A stretch of DNA of 64,000 nucleotides from Shigella phage SSG23, in sequence record PQ351811, one strand, 5' to 3'. The position numbers were made by a program, and so were the translations under genes. The number at the start of each line of letters is the position of its first letter. The first letter of the stretch is position 1. Positions 34,680-62,909 of the stretch are shown piece by piece. The notes below the pieces were generated by a model. The model saw only the letters and a program-made list of their open reading frames with translations, was not told the DNA's origin and ran no database searches.

Positions 34680-34697
34680 CTGTGTGAGGATTATATT

Positions 34698-35018
34698 ATG
34701 AGCAAACTGTTTGAAACTCCGCGCGAAATTCTGATTGATAAACTGAAAGAGCGTGGTTTTAAGATCAAAGATGCAACCAAATACAGCAGAATTGATGAAA
34801 TTAAGTTGCATTCTCTTGATGAACTGGTAGAATATGTTGCGGCAGTGGCTGATCCGCAGTTTGATGTTATTGTAGGTGACGTTGAATATCTCGATAATGT
34901 ATATTCATTCTTCACTTATGGTAAAATTGTGTCTGTGAAAATTTCATTCTGTGAAAATGTGGAGGTACTTGCTAGTGAACCAGAAGAACCAACTAACAAC
35001 GGTCCTACGGCAGCGTAA
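34698..35018 (+). CDS. hypothetical protein
   Basis: 106 aa, after TGTGAGGATTATATTATG translation-initiation motif. Confidence 0.5.
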   Translation: MSKLFETPREILIDKLKERGFKIKDATKYSRIDEIKLHSLDELVEYVAAVADPQFDVIVGDVEYLDNVYSFFTYGKIVSVKISFCENVEVLASEPEEPTNNGPTAA

Positions 35019-50129: not shown

Positions 50130-50158
50130 TTGACAGGGGATCGCCGATCCCCTATACT
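50130..50158 (+). promoter_or_regulatory. early promoter cassette P10 with palindromic spacer
   Basis: TTGACA, spacer GGGGATCGCCGATCCCC (perfect palindrome), TATACT, then CACATCAAAACGAAACAC leader. Confidence 0.65.
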
Positions 50159-50199
50159 ACACACATCAAAACGAAACACACTTTTTAAGGAGAATCAAA

Positions 50200-50478
50200 A
50201 TGAGCAACCTGTCTTTCGCTAAAGTAGAAATTTCTAAAACTCGCGGTGGCATCAAAATCAAAACTTCCAATATCACTTCCTGCCGTGGTTGCGACCAGTT
50301 TGCGCGTGACCTTGCTGTGAAGCTGGGTATGAAAACCTTTACGGTGGAGAGCGGATCTAACTGGACCACTCTGATTGTTACTGCCGCTTGGATCAATGGC
50401 GAGTATGTAGAAAAAGCATACTTTGACATTTTCTATGACTATGAAGAAAAATGCTTTTACGCACTGCAAGACATGTAA
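50200..50478 (+). CDS. hypothetical protein
   Basis: 92 aa ORF after promoter cassette. Confidence 0.5.
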   Translation: MSNLSFAKVEISKTRGGIKIKTSNITSCRGCDQFARDLAVKLGMKTFTVESGSNWTTLIVTAAWINGEYVEKAYFDIFYDYEEKCFYALQDM

Positions 50479-51995: not shown

Positions 51996-52424
51996 ATGGT
52001 TTATCCAACTCCTAGTAAGATTTACATTGATGATACCCATTTTATGGTTGATATGATGGGTATAAAGTTTAGTGGTAATGTTAAAATTGTAGAGTGGGAA
52101 TTGCACGGTCAACCTGTCATCGATTATGACCATTACATTCCTTTTTTGGGTGATGACAATTTTGTCTCGTTTGACCATGAAGGTTACATGATCTTTGAAC
52201 AGTCTGACGTACCTTTGTATCTGGCAATGATGCAAATTCCTACGAAGGTTTCTGTTGTTGAGGGTGATTGCGATTGCTGCGGTTGGTATACTGTAACAGA
52301 TATTAAGTTGCCATCCGGTAAAGAACTCTACAACGAAGACCATTTTGGAAACTGTAACTTTCCGTGTGATTGGGATGAATTTTTCGAACTGGTAGAAACT
52401 GAAAGAACTTATTTAAGGAAGTGA
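51996..52424 (+). CDS. hypothetical protein
   Basis: 142 aa ORF after ATGAGGATTATATAATG motif. Confidence 0.5.
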   Translation: MVYPTPSKIYIDDTHFMVDMMGIKFSGNVKIVEWELHGQPVIDYDHYIPFLGDDNFVSFDHEGYMIFEQSDVPLYLAMMQIPTKVSVVEGDCDCCGWYTVTDIKLPSGKELYNEDHFGNCNFPCDWDEFFELVETERTYLRK

Positions 52425-52426
52425 TA

Positions 52427-53239
52427 ATGAAGAAAGTATTAGGTTTAATTCCCTATACTGGCAATAAAGAAAAGTTATTACCGACAATTAGTAAGTATTT
52501 CCCTAAGCACTACAAACGCTTTGTTGATGCCTTTTGTGGTGGCTTGAGCGTGTCTCTGTACGTCGAAGGTGATGTGCTGGCTAATGACTATGATCACCAA
52601 TTAATTGACGCTTACAAGGCCATTGACGAGTGTCCTGATCCGGTTTCTACGATCAAGCGGATTATTGCCGAAAATGGTTTGTCTCGCGAAGATAAAGACG
52701 CTTACATGACATTCCGTAAGAAGTATAACGAGAATCCAGATCCGCTATCGCTGTTTGTGTTGATTCAGCATAGTTTTAGCAACATTAACCGCCATAACCG
52801 GAAGGGCGAATTTAATGCTAATTTTGGTCGCCGGACTTTTAACGAAAACGCGGTAGAGCGTGTCCTGAATTTTAAGGAAGAAAACAAAGACGGTCGAATC
52901 ATTTTTACTTCTGGACGATATGACGAGATCGAGATCTTGCCAGGTGATTTCGTTTATTTGGACCCGCCGTATCTTATCACTTCTGCGGAATATAATAAGT
53001 TCTGGAGTGACGAGGAAGAGATTAAATTCTATCAGTGGGTAGAATCTATTATGGCGCGTGGTTTTCAGTTTGGTATCAGTAATGTCACGCATCATAAGGG
53101 AAAGGTAAATGATCATCTTCTTGACTTTATCAAGCGGAATGATCTAAACTGCGTCCTGTTGAATAAGACCTATTGCCTAGATCGTTCAGGTGGCAAGTCT
53201 TCTGATACGCAAGAAGTTTATGTAACTAACGTAGATTGA
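52427..53239 (+). CDS. dam: DNA adenine methyltransferase (Dam-like, alpha class)
   Basis: N-terminus KKVLGLIPYTGNKEKLLP, FVDAFCGGLSVSL (motif I) and YLDPPY (motif IV), closely resembling T4 Dam. Confidence 0.85.
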   Translation: MKKVLGLIPYTGNKEKLLPTISKYFPKHYKRFVDAFCGGLSVSLYVEGDVLANDYDHQLIDAYKAIDECPDPVSTIKRIIAENGLSREDKDAYMTFRKKYNENPDPLSLFVLIQHSFSNINRHNRKGEFNANFGRRTFNENAVERVLNFKEENKDGRIIFTSGRYDEIEILPGDFVYLDPPYLITSAEYNKFWSDEEEIKFYQWVESIMARGFQFGISNVTHHKGKVNDHLLDFIKRNDLNCVLLNKTYCLDRSGGKSSDTQEVYVTNVD

Positions 53240-53247
53240 GGTATAAT

Positions 53248-53529
53248 ATGGTAGAAATTTTTGGTTTTGAAGGTTACAACTGTAAGTATTGCCAGAATGC
53301 AAAGCGCCTTTGTGAATCGCGTAAGATCCCTTACATCTACATTCCGGTTAATGATGGTGTAGACGAAAACGGTCGTCCGGTAAAGATTGATTCTATCATT
53401 GCCGACATTCAGGATCGCGCAGGGGTAGAAGTTATTGCCACCATGCCGCAGATTTTCTATAATGGTGATTATATAGGTGGTTTTGATGAGTTCAGATCCT
53501 TTGTAGTCAAAAACAAGATTAATGGTTAA
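53248..53529 (+). CDS. nrdC: glutaredoxin/thioredoxin NrdC-like
   Basis: CKYC active site and MPQIFYNGDYIGGFDEF as in T4 NrdC. Confidence 0.75.
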   Translation: MVEIFGFEGYNCKYCQNAKRLCESRKIPYIYIPVNDGVDENGRPVKIDSIIADIQDRAGVEVIATMPQIFYNGDYIGGFDEFRSFVVKNKING

Positions 53530-53553
53530 ATACCTTCTTTGGAGGGTGAATTT

Positions 53554-54027
53554 ATGTTACTGACTGCTAAGAGTGCTAAAGAGTACAAACAAGAACTATT
53601 CGAAAAACAAGGGGGCATTTGCCCCCTTTGTCAATTACCACTTTTTGAGGATATGAGCAAAAACCATCTTGACCATGATCATGATCTAGATGGGAAAGGG
53701 CAAGGCCGCGTAAGGGGATTGCTTCATTCGTGTTGCAACCGCCTAGAAGGATCGTTGACCGGAGACTTTAAACGGTTTGGTGTTGGTGCTTTAGGTGCTG
53801 ATTTCGTTGTTTGGGCTACAAACTATGTTAATTACATCAAAGGAGACTACACCAACAATCATTTACATCCTCAATATGCTGTTGATAAAGTAAAACGATT
53901 TTCACGCTTGACACGCGCGGAGATGGTTGCTATTATGGACGCAGAAGGTTTCGATTACTGCGACGCTGATACACGAGAAGAAATCACGAAGAAGTATAAG
54001 AAACAATTCATACAAAGATTAAGATAG
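53554..54027 (+). CDS. gp49: recombination endonuclease VII (gp49)
   Basis: MLLTAK..., GGICPLCQLPL, NHLDHDHDLDGKGQGRVRGLLHSCCN match T4 endo VII zinc and H-N-H-like motifs. Confidence 0.85.
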   Translation: MLLTAKSAKEYKQELFEKQGGICPLCQLPLFEDMSKNHLDHDHDLDGKGQGRVRGLLHSCCNRLEGSLTGDFKRFGVGALGADFVVWATNYVNYIKGDYTNNHLHPQYAVDKVKRFSRLTRAEMVAIMDAEGFDYCDADTREEITKKYKKQFIQRLR

Positions 54028-54030
54028 TAG

Positions 54031-54059
54031 TTGACAATAAGAAATGGGAGTAGTAAAAT
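54031..54059 (+). promoter_or_regulatory. early promoter cassette P12 with palindromic spacer
   Basis: TTGACA, spacer with GGGAGTA/TACTCCC inverted repeat, TAAAAT, then GGAGAATCAACAATG. Confidence 0.6.
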
Positions 54060-54090
54060 ACTCCCATCTAATCAAGAAGGAGAATCAACA

Positions 54091-54351
54091 ATGCGTAAGA
54101 TGTTTAAAGCTGGTGTGGCCTATGTTTTTAAATCTGAGCAAGCACATAAAGACTTCTTAGATGATGAATACGAAGGGGTGAAAGATACCTACGAAGTCAT
54201 CAAGAATGGGTTTACTGTTCTTAAAGTGTCACCTGTTGGTTATGTAAGTGAAATAGCGGTTGATGGGAAAACATACACCGCTAAAGACTTTGACCCGCGT
54301 TGGGAATTTATGCTGCTTCCGTGTGAGCGCATTCTGTTCCGTGCTGTTTAA
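54091..54351 (+). CDS. hypothetical protein, paralog family A member 1
   Basis: ORF trimmed to ATG after leader; FKAGVAYVFKSEQ...GFTVLKV...DGKTYTAKDF. Confidence 0.5.
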   Translation: MRKMFKAGVAYVFKSEQAHKDFLDDEYEGVKDTYEVIKNGFTVLKVSPVGYVSEIAVDGKTYTAKDFDPRWEFMLLPCERILFRAV

Positions 54352-54377
54352 TTAGTGAAATGATAGAGGATTATATT

Positions 54378-54938
54378 ATGGTACAGAAAACGTATAAATT
54401 GTATCCGGCTAAGTCTTCAAATGATGCTGTTTTTGAACGAGGTCGTTATTACACTTTCCGTAGTGCAGAAACAGCCGCAGAATTTATCAAACGATGTCCG
54501 CAACATAATAAGTTCTTGTATGACGTGCTTTGTAACGGCTTTAAAGTTCTCACTGTTGATGCGATGGGGCGTGTGTATCTGGTAGAAACTCATGGGTATG
54601 AAGGTGCATCTGTTCTGATTGCTGCAAACGAGCGCAAATACTTTAAACGCATCACTAAAAAGCAGTTTGAAGAAATGAAACCAGTTAAGAAAGAAGAATC
54701 TCTGGAAGATCTGATTAACTTGTTTGGTAAAGTTCGCTCTATCTCCTTTGCGATTGAAGATGACATTACCGACAATAAAATCTTTGTCAAGAACGCGGAA
54801 GACCTGAAAGAGTTCCTTATTGAAAATAGATCTCGACTGGAAACCTTTCTTGAAAGTGAAATTATTCGACATGATACCTACGCTAAATTCAGCGCCGAGA
54901 AAGTGGAAGAACTGAAAGAGATTAAAAAGTCACTTTAA
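54378..54938 (+). CDS. hypothetical protein, paralog family A member 2
   Basis: FERGRYYTFRSAE...GFKVLTVD...NERKYFKRITK; charged C-terminal helix. Confidence 0.5.
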   Translation: MVQKTYKLYPAKSSNDAVFERGRYYTFRSAETAAEFIKRCPQHNKFLYDVLCNGFKVLTVDAMGRVYLVETHGYEGASVLIAANERKYFKRITKKQFEEMKPVKKEESLEDLINLFGKVRSISFAIEDDITDNKIFVKNAEDLKEFLIENRSRLETFLESEIIRHDTYAKFSAEKVEELKEIKKSL

Positions 54939-54941
54939 CGC

Positions 54942-54970
54942 TTGACATGATGAAACGGGAGTAGTAAGAT
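54942..54970 (+). promoter_or_regulatory. early promoter cassette P13 with palindromic spacer
   Basis: GCTTGACA, spacer with GGGAGTA/TACTCCC, TAAGAT, then GAGAGGATTATATTATG. Confidence 0.6.
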
Positions 54971-55001
54971 ACTCCCATCTAAACAACGAGAGGATTATAT
55001 T

Positions 55002-56180
55002 ATGGCTAAATTCTTTGAAGGTCATTACTATGCATTCCGTGAAGGCGGTAAAGATGAGTTTCTAGACTTTTCTCGCTATTCAATTATTCTGACCGATGCT
55101 TCGCGCCGTGGTCATATTCGAGTTGCTGAAATCGTAGAAAAGGGCTTTAAAGTATTAGAAAAAGATGACCACGGTCATGTTATTACTATTGAAGCTGGAG
55201 ATGTAGTTTATTCCGCTGAGGATATCGTTTATTATTGGTCTACTATGATTATGCACAATGAGCGCAAATACTTTAAACGTATCTCAAAAGAGGCATACGA
55301 AGCGATGAACAAGAAAGAGGATGCAATGCCGACTTACTTTGAAAAAGGTAAATGTTATTCGTTTACCCCAGAAGGTTTGCAAGAATTTAAGCGATTCTGG
55401 GGAGAGCATGACCCAGAACACAAAGAAGCCATGAAACTTGCTGATTTTGTCGAATATGGCTTTTTGGTTGAAGAAGAATTGCACGGATCAGCTACCATGA
55501 TCACCGCGAAAGGTGAAACCGTTAAGGCAGATCGTTTTTGTGATCAATGGGCTTGTGTGTTTGACGGTGGCGAATTTGAATACTTCGCGGAAATCACCAA
55601 CCATCAATTTCATTCTATGCAAGCGGAAGGTCAGCGATTTAAAGTAGGCGAACGCTACAAGCCAAATCAGCATAATTTGCCTCATTGGTTTAACACTGAA
55701 ACCGTATCCAGCCATGTTATTGAAATTGTTCAAAAGCTGGAACATGGATTTAAGGTAACTAAAGTAGATCCTTTCGGAAGTGTTGACGCGGTTGAAGTTG
55801 ATGGTGTAGAATATACTCCCAAATCTTTCGGGCTTTGCTGGTATCATCTGATCAGCAATGATGAACGTTATAACTTTGTTGAACTGCCATCTGAACCGGA
55901 AGAAGCACTAGAGGATCATGATCATCTATCTGAACTGGTTAAGCTGTTTGGTGATCTGCCGGATGGTGTAGGGGTGGCGGTAATGGGTGAAGGTGCGGTT
56001 ATCCGAAACCTGAAAGACTTTAAAAAGTTCTTGATTGACATGCTGCCTAAACTTGATGATAATCTCGATACAGATATTCAGAATCGCAAAGAAATTGTTA
56101 AAGAGACTGAAAAAGAGATCGAAGCGATTCGAGCAATTCGCCAGAAGGTGAAAGCAGTAAAGAAAAAAGTTCGTGCTTGA
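55002..56180 (+). CDS. hypothetical protein, paralog family A member 3 (internally repeated)
   Basis: 392 aa; repeats of the family A domain (FEGHYYAFREG...GFKVLEKD..., NERKYFKRISK, ...GFKVTKVD...); C-terminal coiled coil. Confidence 0.55.
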   Translation: MAKFFEGHYYAFREGGKDEFLDFSRYSIILTDASRRGHIRVAEIVEKGFKVLEKDDHGHVITIEAGDVVYSAEDIVYYWSTMIMHNERKYFKRISKEAYEAMNKKEDAMPTYFEKGKCYSFTPEGLQEFKRFWGEHDPEHKEAMKLADFVEYGFLVEEELHGSATMITAKGETVKADRFCDQWACVFDGGEFEYFAEITNHQFHSMQAEGQRFKVGERYKPNQHNLPHWFNTETVSSHVIEIVQKLEHGFKVTKVDPFGSVDAVEVDGVEYTPKSFGLCWYHLISNDERYNFVELPSEPEEALEDHDHLSELVKLFGDLPDGVGVAVMGEGAVIRNLKDFKKFLIDMLPKLDDNLDTDIQNRKEIVKETEKEIEAIRAIRQKVKAVKKKVRA

Positions 56181-56204
56181 CATGCGAAGGGAGTATGCTA
56201 TAAT
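56177..56204 (+). promoter_or_regulatory. early promoter cassette P14 (extended -10, palindromic)
   Basis: GCTTGACA, 16 bp spacer, TGCTATAAT flanked by GGGAGTAT/ATACTCCC. Confidence 0.65.
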
Positions 56205-56234
56205 ACTCCCACTTAACAACGAGAGGATTATATT

Positions 56235-56729
56235 ATGTGGGTACAAGATGTTTGGTATACTGTAACTAAAGAAAACCTTGACGCATTCAGCGACCAATCT
56301 TGCGCTAATAGTTCAATTGCTGGTATCCTTACTGATGTGTTTGGTGGTGTTGATAAAATTCGTTTTAAAGTTGTTGTTGGTTCGATGGGGGGTGTAAAAG
56401 ACCTATACACCGAAGATAAAGACCTTGATCTTGAACTTCGTCTTCGTATTGATAATGCAAGTCTAGGTTATTGGTTTGAAGATAACGAATATGAATACTT
56501 CACCCCAGCAATTAAAGTTTTTGCGACTAAACTGGAAGCTGTACTAAATATCCGACCAATTAATGTTGACGGTTATATTATCAAAAATATTCAGGATTGG
56601 GAGTTGTATCTAGATCAGATTATCCGAAATAGTAAGCAGGAAGCCGCTAATAAGAAGCGACAAGAGATTAAACAGCTTAAGGCTGAACTGGAAGCTAAAG
56701 AAAAAGAATTAGCAGAACTGGTAAAATAA
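56235..56729 (+). CDS. hypothetical protein
   Basis: 164 aa with C-terminal coiled coil (KQLKAELEAKEKELAEL). Confidence 0.5.
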   Translation: MWVQDVWYTVTKENLDAFSDQSCANSSIAGILTDVFGGVDKIRFKVVVGSMGGVKDLYTEDKDLDLELRLRIDNASLGYWFEDNEYEYFTPAIKVFATKLEAVLNIRPINVDGYIIKNIQDWELYLDQIIRNSKQEAANKKRQEIKQLKAELEAKEKELAELVK

Positions 56730-56738
56730 CTATCAACG

Positions 56739-56762
56739 AGCGGGAGAAATCCCGCTTTTTCA
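56739..56762 (+). terminator. rho-independent terminator
   Basis: Hairpin GCGGGAGAAATCCCGC followed by TTTTTC. Confidence 0.6.
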
Positions 56763-56773
56763 TAGGTGATACA

Positions 56774-58636
56774 ATGGAAAAACTAATCAAAGACATTACA
56801 GAGATCGCAACGGGTAAAGAAAACGAAGTAAGCAAAGAGAACGCGAACAAAGACGCGCGAACATTCCCGACACGTCGAGATCTGATTGCTGGTGCTGTGT
56901 CTAAACAGATTGCTAAAACCGTGTTACCTGAGCACATCTATAAAGCGCATGTAGACGGTGATATTCATTATCATGATATGGATTATGCACCCGCTATGCC
57001 GTTTACTAACTGCTGTCTTGTTAATCTCAAAGACATGTTAGAGAATGGTTTTAAATTGGGTAGCGCACAAATCGAAAGTCCTAAATCGATCGGCGTTGCT
57101 TGTGCTGTAACCGCTCAAATTATCGCACAGGTGGCAAGTCATCAATATGGCGGGACCACAATTGCAAACATCGATCAGGTTTTAGCGCCATACGTTGAGA
57201 AAACATATCATAAACACCTTGCTGATGCAGAAACCTACGGAATCAAAGCTGATACTCTCTATGCACAAGAGAAGACAGAAAAAGAAACGCTAGACGGATA
57301 TCAGGCGTTGGAATATGAGATCAACACTTTGTTCTCTACCAACGGTCAAACACCTTTTGTGACTTTAACCTTTGGTATGGGTACTAGCTGGGAAGAAAAA
57401 CTGATTCAGAAAGCGATCCTGAAAGTTCGAACTAAAGGTTTAGGTAAAGATGGTATAACTCCGGTGTTTCCTAAGCTGGTGATGTTCTTAGAAGAAGGAT
57501 TAAACCTTAAACCGGAAGATCCGAACTACGACATTAAGCAACTTGCATTGGAATGTTCTAGTAAGCGTCTTTACCCTGATTATATCTCTGCGAAGAATAA
57601 CCGTAGTATCACTGGATCTAGTGTTCCGGTTAGCCCGATGGGTTGTCGTAGCTTCCTGGGTGTGTGGCATAATGAGAAAGGCGAAGAAGTATTAGATGGA
57701 CGTAATAACTTAGGTGTTGTGACTCTGAATCTTCCGCGTATTGCACTTATTGCCGCGCGTCGTGCTGGTAAAGCGTCTGTAATGCGCAGAATTGAGCTAT
57801 TCGAACAAGAGCTAGCTAATCGTCTGCCTATTTGCTTTGATGCGCTCATGAGTCGCGTAGACGCTTTAAAAGGGGCTAAAGCCAATGTTGCTCCTGTACT
57901 GTATACCGAAGGTGCATTTTTCCGTATTCATCAAAACGATGAAATTTTGGAAGTGCTGAAAGATGGTCGCGCTAGTATCTCTCTTGGGTATATTGGTTTA
58001 CATGAAGTGTTGAGCGTCCTGTTTGGTGTTCATCCGTTTGATTCGGAAGATGCGCAGCGATACGGTAAACATATTCTTAAAATCCTGCGTCATTATACTG
58101 AAAAATGGAAGGACGAAACCGGACTTGGGTTTAGTCTTTACGGCACGCCAGCCGAGAGCCTTTGTTATCGATTTAATCGACTGGACCGAGAGCAATTTGG
58201 TATTGTTAAGGGTGCTACCGATAAAGACTGGTACACCAACTCATTCCACCTTGACGTAGACCGGAAAGTTACACCGTTTGAGAAAATCGACTTTGAGAAA
58301 GACTATCACTGGCTGGCGTCTGGTGGTATGATCTCTTATGTTGAGTTCCCGGACATGAAAAACAACATTAAAGGGCTTGAAACTGTAGTAGACTATGCAA
58401 TGGATAAATTGCACTACTTCGGTGTTAATACTCCTTCTGATGTATGTCATGTATGCGGATCTACTAAGGAAATGAGAGCGACCGAGTCTGGTTTTGTTTG
58501 CCCTGATTGCGGCAATGACAATCTGGAAAAGATGAATGTTATCCGTCGCGTTAGTGGATATCTTGGATCTGTTGACCTGCGTCCATTCAACCACGGGAAA
58601 CACTCCGAGATGGTAAACCGCGTTAAACACATGTAA
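56774..58636 (+). CDS. nrdD: anaerobic ribonucleoside-triphosphate reductase NrdD
   Basis: 620 aa; C-terminal zinc ribbon CHVCGS...CPDCGNDN and glycyl-radical motif RRVSGYLGS. Confidence 0.9.
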   Translation: MEKLIKDITEIATGKENEVSKENANKDARTFPTRRDLIAGAVSKQIAKTVLPEHIYKAHVDGDIHYHDMDYAPAMPFTNCCLVNLKDMLENGFKLGSAQIESPKSIGVACAVTAQIIAQVASHQYGGTTIANIDQVLAPYVEKTYHKHLADAETYGIKADTLYAQEKTEKETLDGYQALEYEINTLFSTNGQTPFVTLTFGMGTSWEEKLIQKAILKVRTKGLGKDGITPVFPKLVMFLEEGLNLKPEDPNYDIKQLALECSSKRLYPDYISAKNNRSITGSSVPVSPMGCRSFLGVWHNEKGEEVLDGRNNLGVVTLNLPRIALIAARRAGKASVMRRIELFEQELANRLPICFDALMSRVDALKGAKANVAPVLYTEGAFFRIHQNDEILEVLKDGRASISLGYIGLHEVLSVLFGVHPFDSEDAQRYGKHILKILRHYTEKWKDETGLGFSLYGTPAESLCYRFNRLDREQFGIVKGATDKDWYTNSFHLDVDRKVTPFEKIDFEKDYHWLASGGMISYVEFPDMKNNIKGLETVVDYAMDKLHYFGVNTPSDVCHVCGSTKEMRATESGFVCPDCGNDNLEKMNVIRRVSGYLGSVDLRPFNHGKHSEMVNRVKHM

Positions 58637-59287: not shown

Positions 59288-59839
59288 GTGACTATGAAAT
59301 CATTAAACCGTAAACGTAAAGCACAACGACACATGGAACACGCAAAATCAATTAATGTTGATATGACATTAGAACATATTGATGATGATTCATGTTATGA
59401 TGATGAACCAACAAATAAGATCCCTGTATGGATGGTTACGGTAAGAATTGACAATAAACAGATCGAAGAGACACACGATGCTTTAGCCTTGTTTCACGAA
59501 TGGCATCCGGTTAATATCGGGTGGGAGGAAAACAAAGCAAAAGGTCAATACTTCCTCACCTGTTCGTGTGGTGTAGCCGGATGCGCTGGGTATTGGGAAC
59601 CTGTTGTGATTCGGGTTAAAAAGGATACTGTACAATGGTCTGTGCGTAAAGAGCAGGGATACAGCAAAGGTGTGATCGGTACTGGCGAGAATGTGATTTA
59701 TCTTAAACGTAAAGATTACGAAGAGTGCCGGAAGTTTATTTTGAATATGCTGCGTTCTTATCCAGATGACAATTTCATGTTTGCCGGAGAGTACCTACCA
59801 GGCCGCCTGTGGTTGAAATCTCTCGAAAAATTTAAATAA
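59288..59839 (+). CDS. hypothetical protein
   Basis: 183 aa ORF with GAGGTGA RBS. Confidence 0.5.
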   Translation: MTMKSLNRKRKAQRHMEHAKSINVDMTLEHIDDDSCYDDEPTNKIPVWMVTVRIDNKQIEETHDALALFHEWHPVNIGWEENKAKGQYFLTCSCGVAGCAGYWEPVVIRVKKDTVQWSVRKEQGYSKGVIGTGENVIYLKRKDYEECRKFILNMLRSYPDDNFMFAGEYLPGRLWLKSLEKFK

Positions 59840-59914: not shown

Positions 59915-60067
59915 ATGTGGACTTTACTGATTTGGGAAACTGAAAACGCACAAGTAGAAATCCGTGAATACGAATACCTAAGCCCAGCTTATCTATTGGC
60001 ATCTCGCGGCGGTTACTATAAAGCGCAGATTGTAAACGAGTTCGGGGTAATTGAATATGAGTTCTGA
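59915..60067 (+). CDS. small hypothetical protein (50 aa)
   Basis: ORF 59840-60067 trimmed to ATG after promoter leader. Confidence 0.4.
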   Translation: MWTLLIWETENAQVEIREYEYLSPAYLLASRGGYYKAQIVNEFGVIEYEF

Positions 60068-60560
60068 TACATACGGCAAACTACGCTATGCCGATATTAA
60101 AGATTGTGATATGGTTAATGGTGAGGGAGTGAGAGTCTCCCTTTACGTTACCGGATGTTCACACGCATGTGATGGTTGCTTTAATTCCAGTATACTCAAT
60201 CCTAAGAACGGGGAACCATTCACCGATGATACAATGGGATTGATTCTGGATCTGCTTAGACCTGATTTTATTCAGGGGCTAACATTCTTAGGTGGAGATC
60301 CACTGTATAAACGCAATTTAAAGGGTGTACAGCGGATCATCGATGAAGTAAAATCATGGATGCCAAATAAAGATATTTGGCTATGGTCCGGTTATACCCT
60401 TGACCAATTGAATGATGAGCAAAGAAAAATTGTAGAATCGGTTGACATGTTCATCGATGGGCGTTATATTAAAGATATGCCAACGAAGAAGCCGTGGCGG
60501 GGGTCTGACAATCAAGTACAATACAAGATTGTTAATAGTATTCCCGTGAAAATTATTTGA
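60057..60560 (+). CDS. nrdG: anaerobic ribonucleotide reductase activating protein NrdG (radical SAM)
   Basis: DCDMVNGEGVRVSLYVTGCSHACDGCFN: CxxxCxxC radical-SAM cluster motif. Confidence 0.85.
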   Translation: MSSDTYGKLRYADIKDCDMVNGEGVRVSLYVTGCSHACDGCFNSSILNPKNGEPFTDDTMGLILDLLRPDFIQGLTFLGGDPLYKRNLKGVQRIIDEVKSWMPNKDIWLWSGYTLDQLNDEQRKIVESVDMFIDGRYIKDMPTKKPWRGSDNQVQYKIVNSIPVKII

Positions 60561-60570
60561 GGTGATTATT

Positions 60571-61098
60571 ATGGAATGGGAAGTTGGTAAAACTTACAAG
60601 ATTGAATGCGAAGCGTCGAAAGCCGAACTGACTAAATTTTCGTCGTCTATTAACAGATGTATTGTTGACTTGTTGGCTGGTCGCCCGTTTAGGGTAGAAG
60701 ACCTTGACGATGATGGTGATGTTAGAGAAATTACTATTATTGGTAGTAATTTCGACTCTATGACGTTAAAAGAATCCCCTATTGGTTGTTCTGGTGTGTG
60801 GTTTTGGTCGGGTGAGCGTCGTTTCTTTACCGAAGTTACTATTGAACCTAAGATTCCAGAATCGGAAGAAAAAGAAGAAGACCTAACTTTAGAACGTCTG
60901 GGTCTGCTTATGGAAGCCTACGACATTCAGTTGATCGATAAGACAGGATTGCACAATAGCATTGCTAAAATCACTACCCTAGAAGGTATTAAGAGCGTAC
61001 TGGATGGTATGCCTAGCCGGATCGGTGCTATCCGCGAATACAAGCAAACGCGCGACCGTATGATCCAATTAGAATCACGTATCAAAAATGAGAGATGA
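60571..61098 (+). CDS. hypothetical protein, paralog family B member 1
   Basis: Starts MEWEVGKTYKIE...; shares W-E-x-G-K-T-Y and RPF motifs with the next three ORFs. Confidence 0.5.
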   Translation: MEWEVGKTYKIECEASKAELTKFSSSINRCIVDLLAGRPFRVEDLDDDGDVREITIIGSNFDSMTLKESPIGCSGVWFWSGERRFFTEVTIEPKIPESEEKEEDLTLERLGLLMEAYDIQLIDKTGLHNSIAKITTLEGIKSVLDGMPSRIGAIREYKQTRDRMIQLESRIKNER

Positions 61099-61102
61099 TA
61101 AT

Positions 61103-61588
61103 ATGAAATGGGAAGAAGGTAAGACCTATAAGTTGGGTGGAGAATACGAAAAGAGTATTTTGCGTGATTGTTGGCGTTACGAACGAAGACCTAATATTGA
61201 TGGTATGTTTACATATCTCGATAAACCATTTATTGTTGCTACGGTAGACCGTTGGGGTAATGTACGTTCAATCTATAATCACGAAGGGGATTATATTAGT
61301 TCTATCGATGTTGGTGATAATATATGGTTTTCCGATGGCGACCGAGCGTGCTTCAAAGAAGTTTTATTGCCTGGTCATGAGCATGATCTAATTGATCTTC
61401 TCAAATTGGCGATGGATAATTATAAAATTCGCTTTGAATGCAAATCACATGCGGCTATCGGTGCTAATGCATTGCGTCATATCTCCAGTTTTGAAGAGTT
61501 GAAAGATTTTCTTGACAAAATGCCGGAAAGAGTGCAAGCTATACAGGAAGCAGAGAAAGCATTAAACGAACTTGATAAAATCGGTTAA
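61103..61588 (+). CDS. hypothetical protein, paralog family B member 2
   Basis: Starts MKWEEGKTYKLGG... Confidence 0.5.
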   Translation: MKWEEGKTYKLGGEYEKSILRDCWRYERRPNIDGMFTYLDKPFIVATVDRWGNVRSIYNHEGDYISSIDVGDNIWFSDGDRACFKEVLLPGHEHDLIDLLKLAMDNYKIRFECKSHAAIGANALRHISSFEELKDFLDKMPERVQAIQEAEKALNELDKIG

Positions 61589-61600
61589 GGGGAATATATT

Positions 61601-62425
61601 ATGAAATGGGAAATTGGTAAAACTTACACTTGGAAAGATGAAAAAGCTAAAACTGAGTTTATTACTAACGGTGAAGGTGTTCTTTCTCCACTTAACAGCG
61701 ATATTAGTGCAGCTATTGGTGACAAGCCATTTACCATCATCGAGATCGAGGGTAATGGTTGGATTGATGTAATAGAACTCGATGGGGTTGAGCATACGGC
61801 GAAAACTGCTACAGGAAAAGACATTTGGACTGCAACATATTTCTTTAGTCCATTCGATAGAAAATTCTTTCGTGAAGTTGAAGAAGTTCCCCAGAAATGG
61901 GAGGTTGGTAAAACTTATACTTGGAAAGATGCGAATGCTATGACCGACTTCTGTCATTATGCTGAAAACGTATCTAATCTTAATTATGTTATTGCACGAG
62001 CAATAAATTATAGACCTTTTACTGTTAAAAATGTTCGTCCATGTGGGCAAATTGATGTAATTGAAATTGATGGTAAAGACCATACTCTAATGAGTGCAAC
62101 CGAAGATAGCGACCATAAAGGAACTAGCTGGTTTATTGATTCTGATAGAAAATTCTTTCAAGAAGTAGAAGAATTGGAAGTTATAACCACTGATTCTAAG
62201 ATCGTTGGGCAATTGAAGCGTCTGTTTAGTAGTCGTTATGGCCTAACAATGGTTAAATTTGGCGAAGCAAATGAAGGTAAAACCTTTGAACGTTTCGATG
62301 ATTTCATCACAGCACTTGACAAGATGGACGAAATCATGCAAGATCGACAGAAGATTAAAGACCTTCAAGAAGACATTAACCGTCGTGAAGTTGAATTTTT
62401 GATTGGTAAAGAGCGAGGATGGTAA
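61601..62425 (+). CDS. hypothetical protein, paralog family B member 3 (two tandem domains)
   Basis: Two copies of the domain: MKWEIGKTYTWKD...FFREVEE and KWEVGKTYTWKD...FFQEVEE. Confidence 0.55.
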   Translation: MKWEIGKTYTWKDEKAKTEFITNGEGVLSPLNSDISAAIGDKPFTIIEIEGNGWIDVIELDGVEHTAKTATGKDIWTATYFFSPFDRKFFREVEEVPQKWEVGKTYTWKDANAMTDFCHYAENVSNLNYVIARAINYRPFTVKNVRPCGQIDVIEIDGKDHTLMSATEDSDHKGTSWFIDSDRKFFQEVEELEVITTDSKIVGQLKRLFSSRYGLTMVKFGEANEGKTFERFDDFITALDKMDEIMQDRQKIKDLQEDINRREVEFLIGKERGW

Positions 62426-62426
62426 T

Positions 62427-62909
62427 ATGTTTGTTGCTGGCGTGACCTATCAGTGGAAAGATAAGAAAACGAGAGAAGATTTTGCAAACTTTAGCGTTGC
62501 AAATGATGCAATAGCAGAGTTTATCGGCGACCGTCCATTTAAAGTTATTGCATTTGATCACCATGCATCGGATGTGGATTATGTTTCTGTGATTGAAATT
62601 GATGGCAAGGTGTACACCTGCTGCAATGTTGATGATGTACGGGAATACGCGCACAACTGGTTTTTGCAATCAGAAGAACGTCATTTTAAAGTGGTATCGG
62701 CAGAACTGACCACTGATGCAATGTTGGAACAATTTTTTAACAACTACGAAGTTTCTGTACGTCGATATGGTGAAGAGGAAGTATTTAAAATTGATGACTA
62801 TAATCAGTTTAAACGAGTATTCGCCACTAAGATCCAACGTGATATTGAACGCGAGAAGCGCATCAAGGAACTGGAAGAAGAACTGGAAAGATTAAAGGCT
62901 GAGAAATGA
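62427..62909 (+). CDS. hypothetical protein, paralog family B member 4
   Basis: MFVAGVTYQWKDKKTREDF...GDRPFKVIAF...VIEIDGKVYT; C-terminal coiled coil. Confidence 0.5.
   Translation: MFVAGVTYQWKDKKTREDFANFSVANDAIAEFIGDRPFKVIAFDHHASDVDYVSVIEIDGKVYTCCNVDDVREYAHNWFLQSEERHFKVVSAELTTDAMLEQFFNNYEVSVRRYGEEEVFKIDDYNQFKRVFATKIQRDIEREKRIKELEEELERLKAEK

Follow-up and report, generated by a model that had tools for sequence, protein, structure and literature searches.

Two arrays of GoF/Frd.2-family paralogs beside the nrd genes of Shigella phage SSG23

Genes and features at the locus

The stretch of DNA analysed here, referred to as the window, comprises 64,000 nucleotides (nt) of Shigella phage SSG23 (record PQ351811) and is a Krischvirus sequence, that is, from an RB49-like, T4-type coliphage of the Straboviridae. 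It carries two gene arrays, A between gp49 and nrdD and B between nrdG and nrdH, each of four genes. Together they encode 11 copies of one domain, five of them in array B (Table 1). All eight are paralogous to two early proteins of T4, GoF and Frd.2.

The original prediction, made from the letters of the sequence, had described three adjacent open reading frames (ORFs) with a common domain. This was borne out for A1, A2 and A3, with a domain of about 90 amino acids (aa); a fourth member, A4, lies just past the region covered and was missed. The motifs listed at the time, F-x-x-G-x-Y-Y-x-F-[KR], GF[KT]VL and DG..YT.K.F, are all present in the ORF translations, and the 392-aa protein A3, said to contain several copies, holds exactly three (aa 1-97, 108-200 and 206-306, each at E ~1e-35 with the family A profile). 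A sequence described as an identical linker, NERKYFKRI(T/S)K, is present in A2 and in domain 1 of A3 only and is absent from A1. Nor is it a linker, as the A2 structure model places it in a helical turn and the last barrel strand (residues 83-92).

Aligned with MAFFT, the copies give a consensus over about 90 residues: [FW]-x-x-G-x-x-Y ... [EF]F ... (N) ... [GP]F-x-V ... G-x-V-x-x-I ... [FW] ... E-R-x-[YF]-F-x-E-[VI]. NERKYFKRI is the local form of the last, family-wide motif. A short helix, I[TS]xxx[FY]xxM, follows this strand in A2 and in the first two domains of A3.

Homology between the arrays and with T4 GoF and Frd.2

Families A and B had been suggested to derive from one expanding superfamily, and the common origin stands. 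The profile-profile comparison of A and B repeats proposed with that suggestion was run and is significant over an end-to-end alignment (hhalign, 97.6% probability, E = 4.1e-12, 88 columns). Searches with profile hidden Markov models (HMMs) agree, as do cross-matches in the PHROG library. With all 623 stop-to-stop ORFs of the window as the search set, an HMM trained solely on the five copies of family A picks up every one of the four family B genes (E = 5.8e-16 to 2e-4), the next-best ORF following at E = 2.7, and the family B HMM retrieves A3 (1.5e-8), A1 (1e-7) and A2 (2.7e-5). These cross-family HMMs return family members only, both among the 623 ORFs and among the 1599 ORFs of a wider set. 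Low-complexity composition, named beforehand as the alternative, does not account for the matches because HMMER scores are composition-corrected. The word 'expanding' was overstated, given copies that are 15-51% identical and an array that is conserved across the genus.

The divergent A4 matches a profile of 90 family domains, built without A4-type sequences, at E = 7.6e-9 (31 bits, profile positions 3-83, 1599 ORFs). It further matches family B in hhalign at E = 1.4e-4 and phrog_3710 at 7e-4. Its tie to the GoF/Frd.2 family runs only via the wider family profile.

For the other genes, the PHROG scan makes the connection to T4. For instance, phrog_8944 ('goF mRNA metabolism modulator') takes A2 and A3, and phrog_5347 takes the B genes and is also matched by A3 at 2e-15. 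A third group, phrog_622, is matched by A1 (4e-7), A2, A3 and B1-B4. T4 GoF and Frd.2 both fall in phrog_622 (4.6e-38 and 4.1e-46), and GoF matches phrog_5347 at 6.5e-7. When searched against T4, an HMM of the 11 window copies detects GoF at 33.4 bits (residues 4-91), Frd.2 at 15.1 bits (residues 2-86) and, barely, MotB.1 at 6.6 bits. Some existing labels point the same way: RB49, Phi1 and JSE call A3 frd.2, and automatic annotation gives both A2 and A3 the name 'goF mRNA metabolism modulator'.

In Pfam scans, the eight proteins and 51 family members gave no match above threshold, and the weak ones (Complex1_LYR, DUF5505 at E = 0.054 and others) were set aside as noise. The only Pfam model of the family, PF03197 (FRD2; gathering threshold 29 bits), represents the Frd.2 branch alone: T4 Frd.2 scores 133 bits on it, no window protein appears at E <= 1 and the best of the 51 family members (1/51) reaches E = 0.009. 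Two further ORFs, 34680-35015 and 50134-50475, were considered as members and rejected, their partial matches (E ~0.06-0.1) being noise and each belonging to its own unrelated PHROG.

Table 1. Coordinates of the array genes, their promoters and the neighbouring genes in the window
Feature	Coordinates	Strand	Description
dam	52421-53239	+	
nrdC	53236-53529	+	
gp49	53539-54027	+	ORF call; RB49-equivalent start 53554
PeSL promoter of A1	54031-54075	+	TTGACA, 17 nt, TAAAAT; 11/12 positions; stem -13.8 kcal/mol, z = -4.5
A1	54091-54351	+	86 aa; lone GoF/Frd.2-type barrel, without C-terminal module
A2	54378-54938	+	186 aa; barrel aa 18-100, then C-terminal module and long charged helix
PeSL promoter of A3	54942-54986	+	87% DNA identity to 54031-54075 (paralogous)
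A3	55002-56180	+	392 aa; three tandem barrels, then C-terminal module and 55-residue helix
A3 barrels	55002-55292, 55323-55601, 55617-55919	+	family A profile HMM domains
PeSL promoter of A4	56177-56220	+	TTGACA, 16 nt, TATAAT; 12/12 positions; 84% identity to 54940-55004
A4	56235-56729	+	164 aa; divergent; barrel, C-terminal module, charged helix
Intrinsic-terminator-like hairpin	56739-56761	+	GCGGGA-GAAA-TCCCGC then TTTTT; closes array A ahead of nrdD
nrdD	56774-58636	+	
Three ORFs unrelated to the arrays	between nrdD and nrdG	+	include X2, 59294-59839
nrdG	60051-60560	+	ORF call; RB49-equivalent start 60057
B1	60571-61098	+	175 aa; barrel and C-terminal module; phrog_5347 5e-66, phrog_622 1e-10
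B2	61103-61588	+	161 aa; barrel and C-terminal module
B3	61601-62425	+	274 aa; tandem barrels 61601-61888 and 61889-62179, then C-terminal module
B4	62433-62909	+	158 aa; barrel and C-terminal module
nrdH	downstream of B4	+	

Predicted fold and domain architecture

The domain is predicted to be a small, five-stranded SH3-like or 'LSm-like' beta-barrel with two inserted helices. Structure models cover A2 and A3. The AlphaFold2 model of A2, computed from a 51-sequence family alignment, has a predicted local distance difference test score (pLDDT) of 87.8. In its barrel (residues 24-92), two helices separate the first strand (24-27) from three further strands (55-60, 66-70 and 77-81), and a helical turn leads into the last strand (89-92). 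Beyond the barrel lie a helix, a pair of strands and two more helices, the second of 35 residues. In the A3 model (pLDDT 68) the same pattern of strands and helices is seen three times at lower confidence.

A Foldseek search of the A2 model against BFVD gave 47 matches at E <= 1e-3, mostly from T4-like phages, including the GoF of VR7 at 1.6e-5. Against the PDB there was no significant match and nothing below E = 0.3; the best-placed neighbours, none of them significant, are SH3-like barrels of the FeoA, Tudor and KOW types rather than Hfq.

A small alpha/beta module ending in a long, highly charged helix follows the barrel or barrels in seven genes, A1 being the exception. Families A and B have this C-terminal module (helix, two strands, helix, long charged helix) in common. 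Conserved columns of the family alignments are mostly core hydrophobic residues, and the surfaces are variable. Ten of the 11 barrels have an isoelectric point (pI) of 4.3-6.2 and a net charge of -1 to -10, and only the A2 barrel is basic (pI 9.2).

The A1 of the window has 86 aa, compared with 90 aa in RB49 (L004 7591-7863) and GEC-3S. A CAA-to-TAA change produces the early stop at 54351, four codons ahead of the usual end, and leaves the barrel unaffected.

Comparison with known families

GoF and Frd.2, together with MotB.1, were defined in 2025 as a phage LSm-like fold family of T4-type phages, in which the GoF N-terminal domain is classed as LSm-like and has FeoA-type SH3-like domains as its closest PDB neighbours (Kim et al. 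2025, Comput Struct Biotechnol J, PMC12152347). The N-terminal barrel of the array proteins is homologous to theirs in sequence, and its predicted fold and PDB neighbours (FeoA, SH3-like) are the same. Both groups are accessory genes of T4-type phages, those of the arrays being putative early genes, and they are broadly alike in encoding a barrel, a linker and a small C-terminal domain. This layout fits A2, A4, B1, B2 and B4; A1 has the barrel only, and A3 and B3 have three and two barrels, respectively.

The two groups also differ. T4 has three dispersed single-barrel genes, whereas the window has eight clustered genes with 11 barrels, including two- and three-barrel proteins; the description by Kim et al. 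does not mention multi-barrel forms (PMC12152347). In addition, the C-terminal module of the A and B proteins, with its long charged helix, differs from the short C-terminal domain of GoF or Frd.2.

Resemblance to FeoA, Tudor, KOW, the IdeR/DtxR C-terminal domain and Hfq/LSm proteins is one of fold only, with no similarity in sequence (8-16% identity), and does not amount to membership. Compared with FeoA and SH3-like barrels, the array barrels have two helices inserted between strands 1 and 2, and inspection of the family alignments revealed no conserved metal-binding histidines. As for Hfq and Sm/LSm proteins, there is no Pfam LSM or Hfq match and no conserved Sm1/Sm2-type motif, and 10 of the 11 barrels are acidic.

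Distribution beyond the window

When the 11-copy profile was run exhaustively with HMMER over 1.84 billion cluster representatives, only 66 clusters scored at E <= 1e-3. About 58 of these are genuine; most are proteins of 140-190 aa with one barrel, and six or more have two. Three-barrel lineages number two, namely the A3 orthologs and the unrelated P0037, and the full A3 architecture is restricted to relatives of at least 81% identity. No deposited phage genome was matched by tblastn with the three-barrel P0037 or the two-barrel P0019.

Seven longer proteins of bacterial type (P0021, P0022, P0048, P0060, P0064, P0068 and P0072) were rejected as spurious repeat matches, in which only stretches of 25-50 residues were matched, repeatedly. 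All fail the domain profile except P0068, which has one 25-residue stretch at E = 0.0036. These proteins (466-1499 aa) match the profile centre, 'F-x-V...D..G.V..I', four to eight times each and are probably unrelated beta-rich repeats.

Multi-barrel forms also occur elsewhere among T4-like phages. For example, two-barrel 'goF' genes are found at the canonical goF-cef locus in T4-like phages of Enterobacter, Klebsiella and Edwardsiella, such as PEi20 and CIP9. Their proteins are 33-34% identical to P0034, a two-barrel family representative whose relatives are annotated goF. They resemble the array proteins in that the same barrel is tandemly duplicated within one protein, and differ in their locus, in their C-terminal domain and in being single genes and not arrays. 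Multiple family paralogs per genome are present in further T4-like genera, according to the BFVD Foldseek matches.

Outside the window, RB49 has a ninth member, Dc2 (RB49p021, 211 aa, L005 11993-12628, minus strand; E = 1e-7, profile positions 4-86). The Dc2 model of ECD7 matches the A2 model in BFVD at 4.6e-6. With Dc2 added from the scan of the rest of RB49, the Krischvirus total is therefore nine genes and 12 barrels, compared with the three single-barrel genes reported for T4. Dc2 sits immediately upstream of helicase gene 41, whose mRNA is acted on by GoF(D25Y), which may or may not be a coincidence. The family HMM found no family gene in RB49 at the T4 positions of goF/motB.1 (39-dexA; L005 3205-5971) and frd.2 (frd-32; L006 138437-141944); in Krischvirus, the family adjoins the nrd genes rather than occupying the T4 positions.

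Promoters and expression

PeSLs (promoter-early stem-loop cassettes) are sigma-70 consensus promoters with a stable stem-loop, adjacent or overlapping, located between accessory ORFs of a hyperplastic region (Arbiol et al. 2010, PMC2839356; Comeau et al. 2014, PMC4122927). The three promoters of array A fit this published definition, are set in an RB49-like variable region and differ in nothing essential from the PeSLs of RB49 and phi1, save that the three copies share one specific stem. They match 10-12 of 12 consensus positions and have stems of -11.9 to -14.5 kcal/mol (z = -3.1 to -4.5), and GEC-3S annotates a promoter at the place of the first. Each gene had been credited with its own palindromic promoter. 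This holds upstream of A1 (54031), A3 (54942) and A4 (56177), and fails for A2, where the 26-nt gap from A1 contains a ribosome-binding site and no promoter. The A2 start is the ATG at 54378, in the ribosome-binding context GAGGATTATATTATG that is also used by A3 and A4.

The stem-loop, GGGAGTA...TACTCCC, overlies the -10 box (54046-54065, 54957-54976 and 56189-56210). Because the stem sequence GGGAGTA(N)TACTCCC is confined to these three sites in the 64-kb window, it suggests that the PeSLs of array A were duplicated together with the genes. More generally, PeSLs seem to form local sub-families that duplicate along with their genes. At X1, the upstream promoter (58680) is laid out similarly but has a different, non-palindromic spacer.

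From these three strong promoters, the A genes would be transcribed early by the host sigma-70 RNA polymerase. Array B has no PeSL, and its gene spacing is minimal or overlapping; transcription from upstream would continue into the B genes, which form a closely packed block with probable translational coupling. Promoter and terminator activity, as well as mini-circle formation by PeSL-PeSL recombination, were shown for other PeSLs of RB49 and phi1 (PMC2839356).

The terminator-like hairpin that closes array A was read from the sequence and was not listed by the consensus scan; GEC-3S annotates a terminator at the homologous place.

Age, selection and changes in repeat number

Pairwise identity among the copies is 15-51%, the closest pairs being the two domains of B3 (51%), A2 and A3 domain 1 (38%), and B1 and B2 (34%). 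The array is also a stable feature of the genus. Across 54000-56800, where the window is 100% identical to Shigella phage SFHK24, DNA identity is 90-100% in 57 of the 58 matching Krischvirus records and 80-90% in the remaining one. The A region is covered to at least 80% in 56 of 58 records, full-length A3 is kept in 58/58 and B3 in 58/59. From this divergence and conservation it follows that the duplications are old, that recent duplication can be rejected, and that repeats are gained or lost only occasionally today. The ratio of non-synonymous to synonymous substitution rates (dN/dS) is 0.06-0.44 for the eight genes (0.22-0.32 for A1), compared with 0-0.02 for gp49 and nrdD (nrdD, 0.02), and never exceeds 1. 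All eight genes are thus under purifying but relaxed selection. Taken jointly, membership in the GoF/Frd.2 barrel family and origin by old duplication form a conclusion in which we have high confidence.

The arrays probably arose by old tandem gene duplication combined with duplication of domains within genes. Within the arrays, DNA identity is limited to the PeSLs (84-87%), the ribosome-binding sites and the codons at domain starts and ends: MKWExGKTY at the start (87-95%), DRKFFxEVEE (89%) and NERKYFKRI (85%) at the end. Homologous recombination at such short, near-identical patches, that is, at PeSL cassettes between A genes and at domain-start and domain-end codons, would offer a route for these changes, and the same process would add or remove whole repeats today. 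In RB49 and phi1, experiments have demonstrated shuffling mediated by PeSLs (PMC2839356).

B3 provides the clearest case, with natural forms that have both domains, the first only or the second only. The gene is two-barrel in the window and in RB49. In ELT4, ELT4_43 (L008 2510-3046) encodes a 178-aa B3 with exactly domain 1 and the C-terminal module, joined in frame within DRKFF[R/Q]EVEE. The metagenomic P0074 (177 aa) consists of domain 2, to which it is 94% identical (53% to domain 1), and the C-terminal module; here the junction is in MKWEIGKTYTWKD. The two junctions lie within the only high-identity DNA between the repeats (61603-61649/61894-61940 and 61852-61885/62139-62173).

Whole genes appear to be exchanged as well. 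B4 has 70% aa identity to its counterparts in RB49 and GEC-3S, with a synonymous rate (dS) above 1, and B2 is 69% identical to that of RB49 but 95% to that of GEC-3S. ORF X2, which is unrelated to the family, has 55% identity and a dS of ~1.3-1.6 relative to RB49 and GEC-3S. The genes flanking B2, B4 and X2 are 95-100% identical to those of RB49 and GEC-3S; for the neighbours of B4 the figure is 97-99%. This looks like whole-gene, cassette-wise allelic replacement within the genus. In ELT4, the B4 ortholog (L008 3048-3544) is broken by a frameshift into two ORFs (98 aa and 62 aa), a sign that B4 may be dispensable.

Possible functions

GoF is abundant early in infection. Its D25Y variant stabilises mRNA post-transcriptionally and lengthens mRNA half-life, whereas wild-type GoF and MotB.1 do not stabilise mRNA, and AlphaFold3 gave no confident homo-oligomers (PMC12152347). 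In a transcriptome-wide CRISPRi-ART knock-down screen, frd.2 was the only T4 gene of unknown function scored as fitness-important (PMC11879866).

By analogy, the array proteins would influence the fate of mRNA in the manner of GoF, as accessories for host takeover that the phage can dispense with. The barrels would serve as binding modules, each with variable surface loops that set a paralog-specific ligand, and the C-terminal helix and tandem copies would provide multivalency. We favour this picture of GoF-like accessories with paralog-specific binding modules, tentatively and without calling it probable. Because 10 of the 11 barrels are acidic, their ligands would more likely be host or phage proteins of the RNA and transcription machinery than RNA itself.

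Several points weigh against this interpretation and the history proposed above. The RNA link of the family comes from one gain-of-function allele, GoF(D25Y), and a function for the Krischvirus members would be carried over from T4 by analogy. Likewise, early expression of the A genes is deduced from promoter consensus. Heptad periodicity in the C-terminal helices does not beat shuffled sequences, save marginally in A3 and B2, and the label 'coiled coil' was for this reason dropped in favour of 'long charged helix'. With regard to recombination, the B3 polymorphism may reflect loss or gain of a repeat, as either direction fits, and DNA conservation at the motif codons could stem from selection on translation starts.

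The T4 goF mutations that suppress rho offer one hint of GoF-like activity in the arrays. At the position equivalent to G84R, the second rho-suppressor site, K or R is found in 6/11 window copies and 23/59 family representatives, and G in only 5/59. F or Y occupies the D25-equivalent position in 5/11 window copies, a count that is suggestive only, as the residue borders a variable loop, the multiple alignment is ambiguous there and the position was placed by ungapped offset from an invariant Phe. The rho-suppressor substitutions would thus seem to shift GoF toward states common in the family, with the D25 part being the more tentative.

It is quite doubtful, however, that the Krischvirus paralogs natively have the activity that GoF gains only by such mutations. 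If they did, the eight genes and 11 barrels of the arrays, together with Dc2, would be a toolkit of graded and multivalent action that shields particular phage mRNAs in early infection or, instead, disarms host Rho or the degradosome, with repeat number tuned by recombination at boundary motifs. What is now an orphan family would then offer a manageable system in which to study the control of mRNA fate by T4-type phages.

A different possibility, unlikely but deserving attention, is that the proteins are diversified counter-defence factors or host-factor decoys unrelated to RNA metabolism, each paralog neutralising a different host protein. They are set among early accessory genes in a variable region rich in PeSLs, which would suit such a role, as would their small size and acidity and the occurrence of several paralogs per genome in other T4-like genera. 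The same holds for relaxed constraint (dN/dS up to 0.44, compared with 0.02 for nrdD), for the apparent exchange of entire B2 and B4 alleles between phages that are 95-99% identical otherwise, and for the pseudogenised B4 of ELT4. However, array content is largely stable (A region 56/58, A3 58/58, B3 58/59), unlike the presence/absence turnover of an arms race, no dN/dS exceeds 1, and the sole known phenotype of the family is RNA-related. No member is a known anti-defence protein, although no search with PADLOC or an anti-defence library was made.

It is improbable that the barrels act as genuine RNA chaperones of the LSm/Hfq type, binding RNA themselves, with tandem copies and oligomers formed through the C-terminal helix mimicking a six- or seven-membered Sm ring (an A3 dimer, for example, would have six barrels). 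The LSm-like class of the GoF N-terminal domain and the mRNA half-life effect of GoF(D25Y) (PMC12152347) lend this idea some appeal, together with the basic A2 barrel and the K/R and F/Y residues at the G84- and D25-equivalent positions. Set against these are the acidity of the other 10 barrels, the missing Sm1/Sm2-type motif, and nearest structures that are FeoA, Tudor and KOW-type SH3-like barrels and not Hfq. Moreover, RNA stability is unaffected by GoF and MotB.1 in their wild-type forms, AlphaFold3 predicted no confident homo-oligomers (PMC12152347), and the heptad periodicity of most C-terminal tails is no better than that of shuffles.

Finally, the chance that the similarity is a compositional or low-complexity artefact among AT-rich phage ORFs, or that families A and B are unrelated, is negligible: although A-B copy pairs are only 16-29% identical and Pfam finds nothing, we count this explanation as already refuted by the cross-family HMMs, which return the family only, and by the end-to-end hhalign alignment (E = 4e-12), and it is further opposed by PHROGs, an independent library that ties both families to T4 GoF/Frd.2, by the confident A2 structure prediction and by purifying selection on the genes.

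Significance

The family itself and the PeSL promoters had been described before, and A2 and A3 already carried 'frd.2' and 'goF' labels. The new elements are the union of A1, A4, B1-B4 and Dc2 with GoF/Frd.2, the multi-barrel architectures, the common C-terminal module and the repeat-number polymorphism. A1, A4 and B1-B4 are 'hypothetical' in every record examined and now receive a family assignment. Overall, annotation is refined and experiments are suggested; no concept is changed, and the novelty is modest. For structure-function work, the arrays supply natural variants, such as the basic A2 barrel and copies with suppressor-like residues. In turn, B3 is a clean example of apparent repeat-number change by recombination at conserved motif codons.

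Neighbouring genes

Upstream of array A, the window and RB49 differ from GEC-3S between dam and nrdC. These two genes abut or overlap in the window (at 53236) and in RB49, and GEC-3S has a putative HNH homing endonuclease gene between them (L002 6492-7247).

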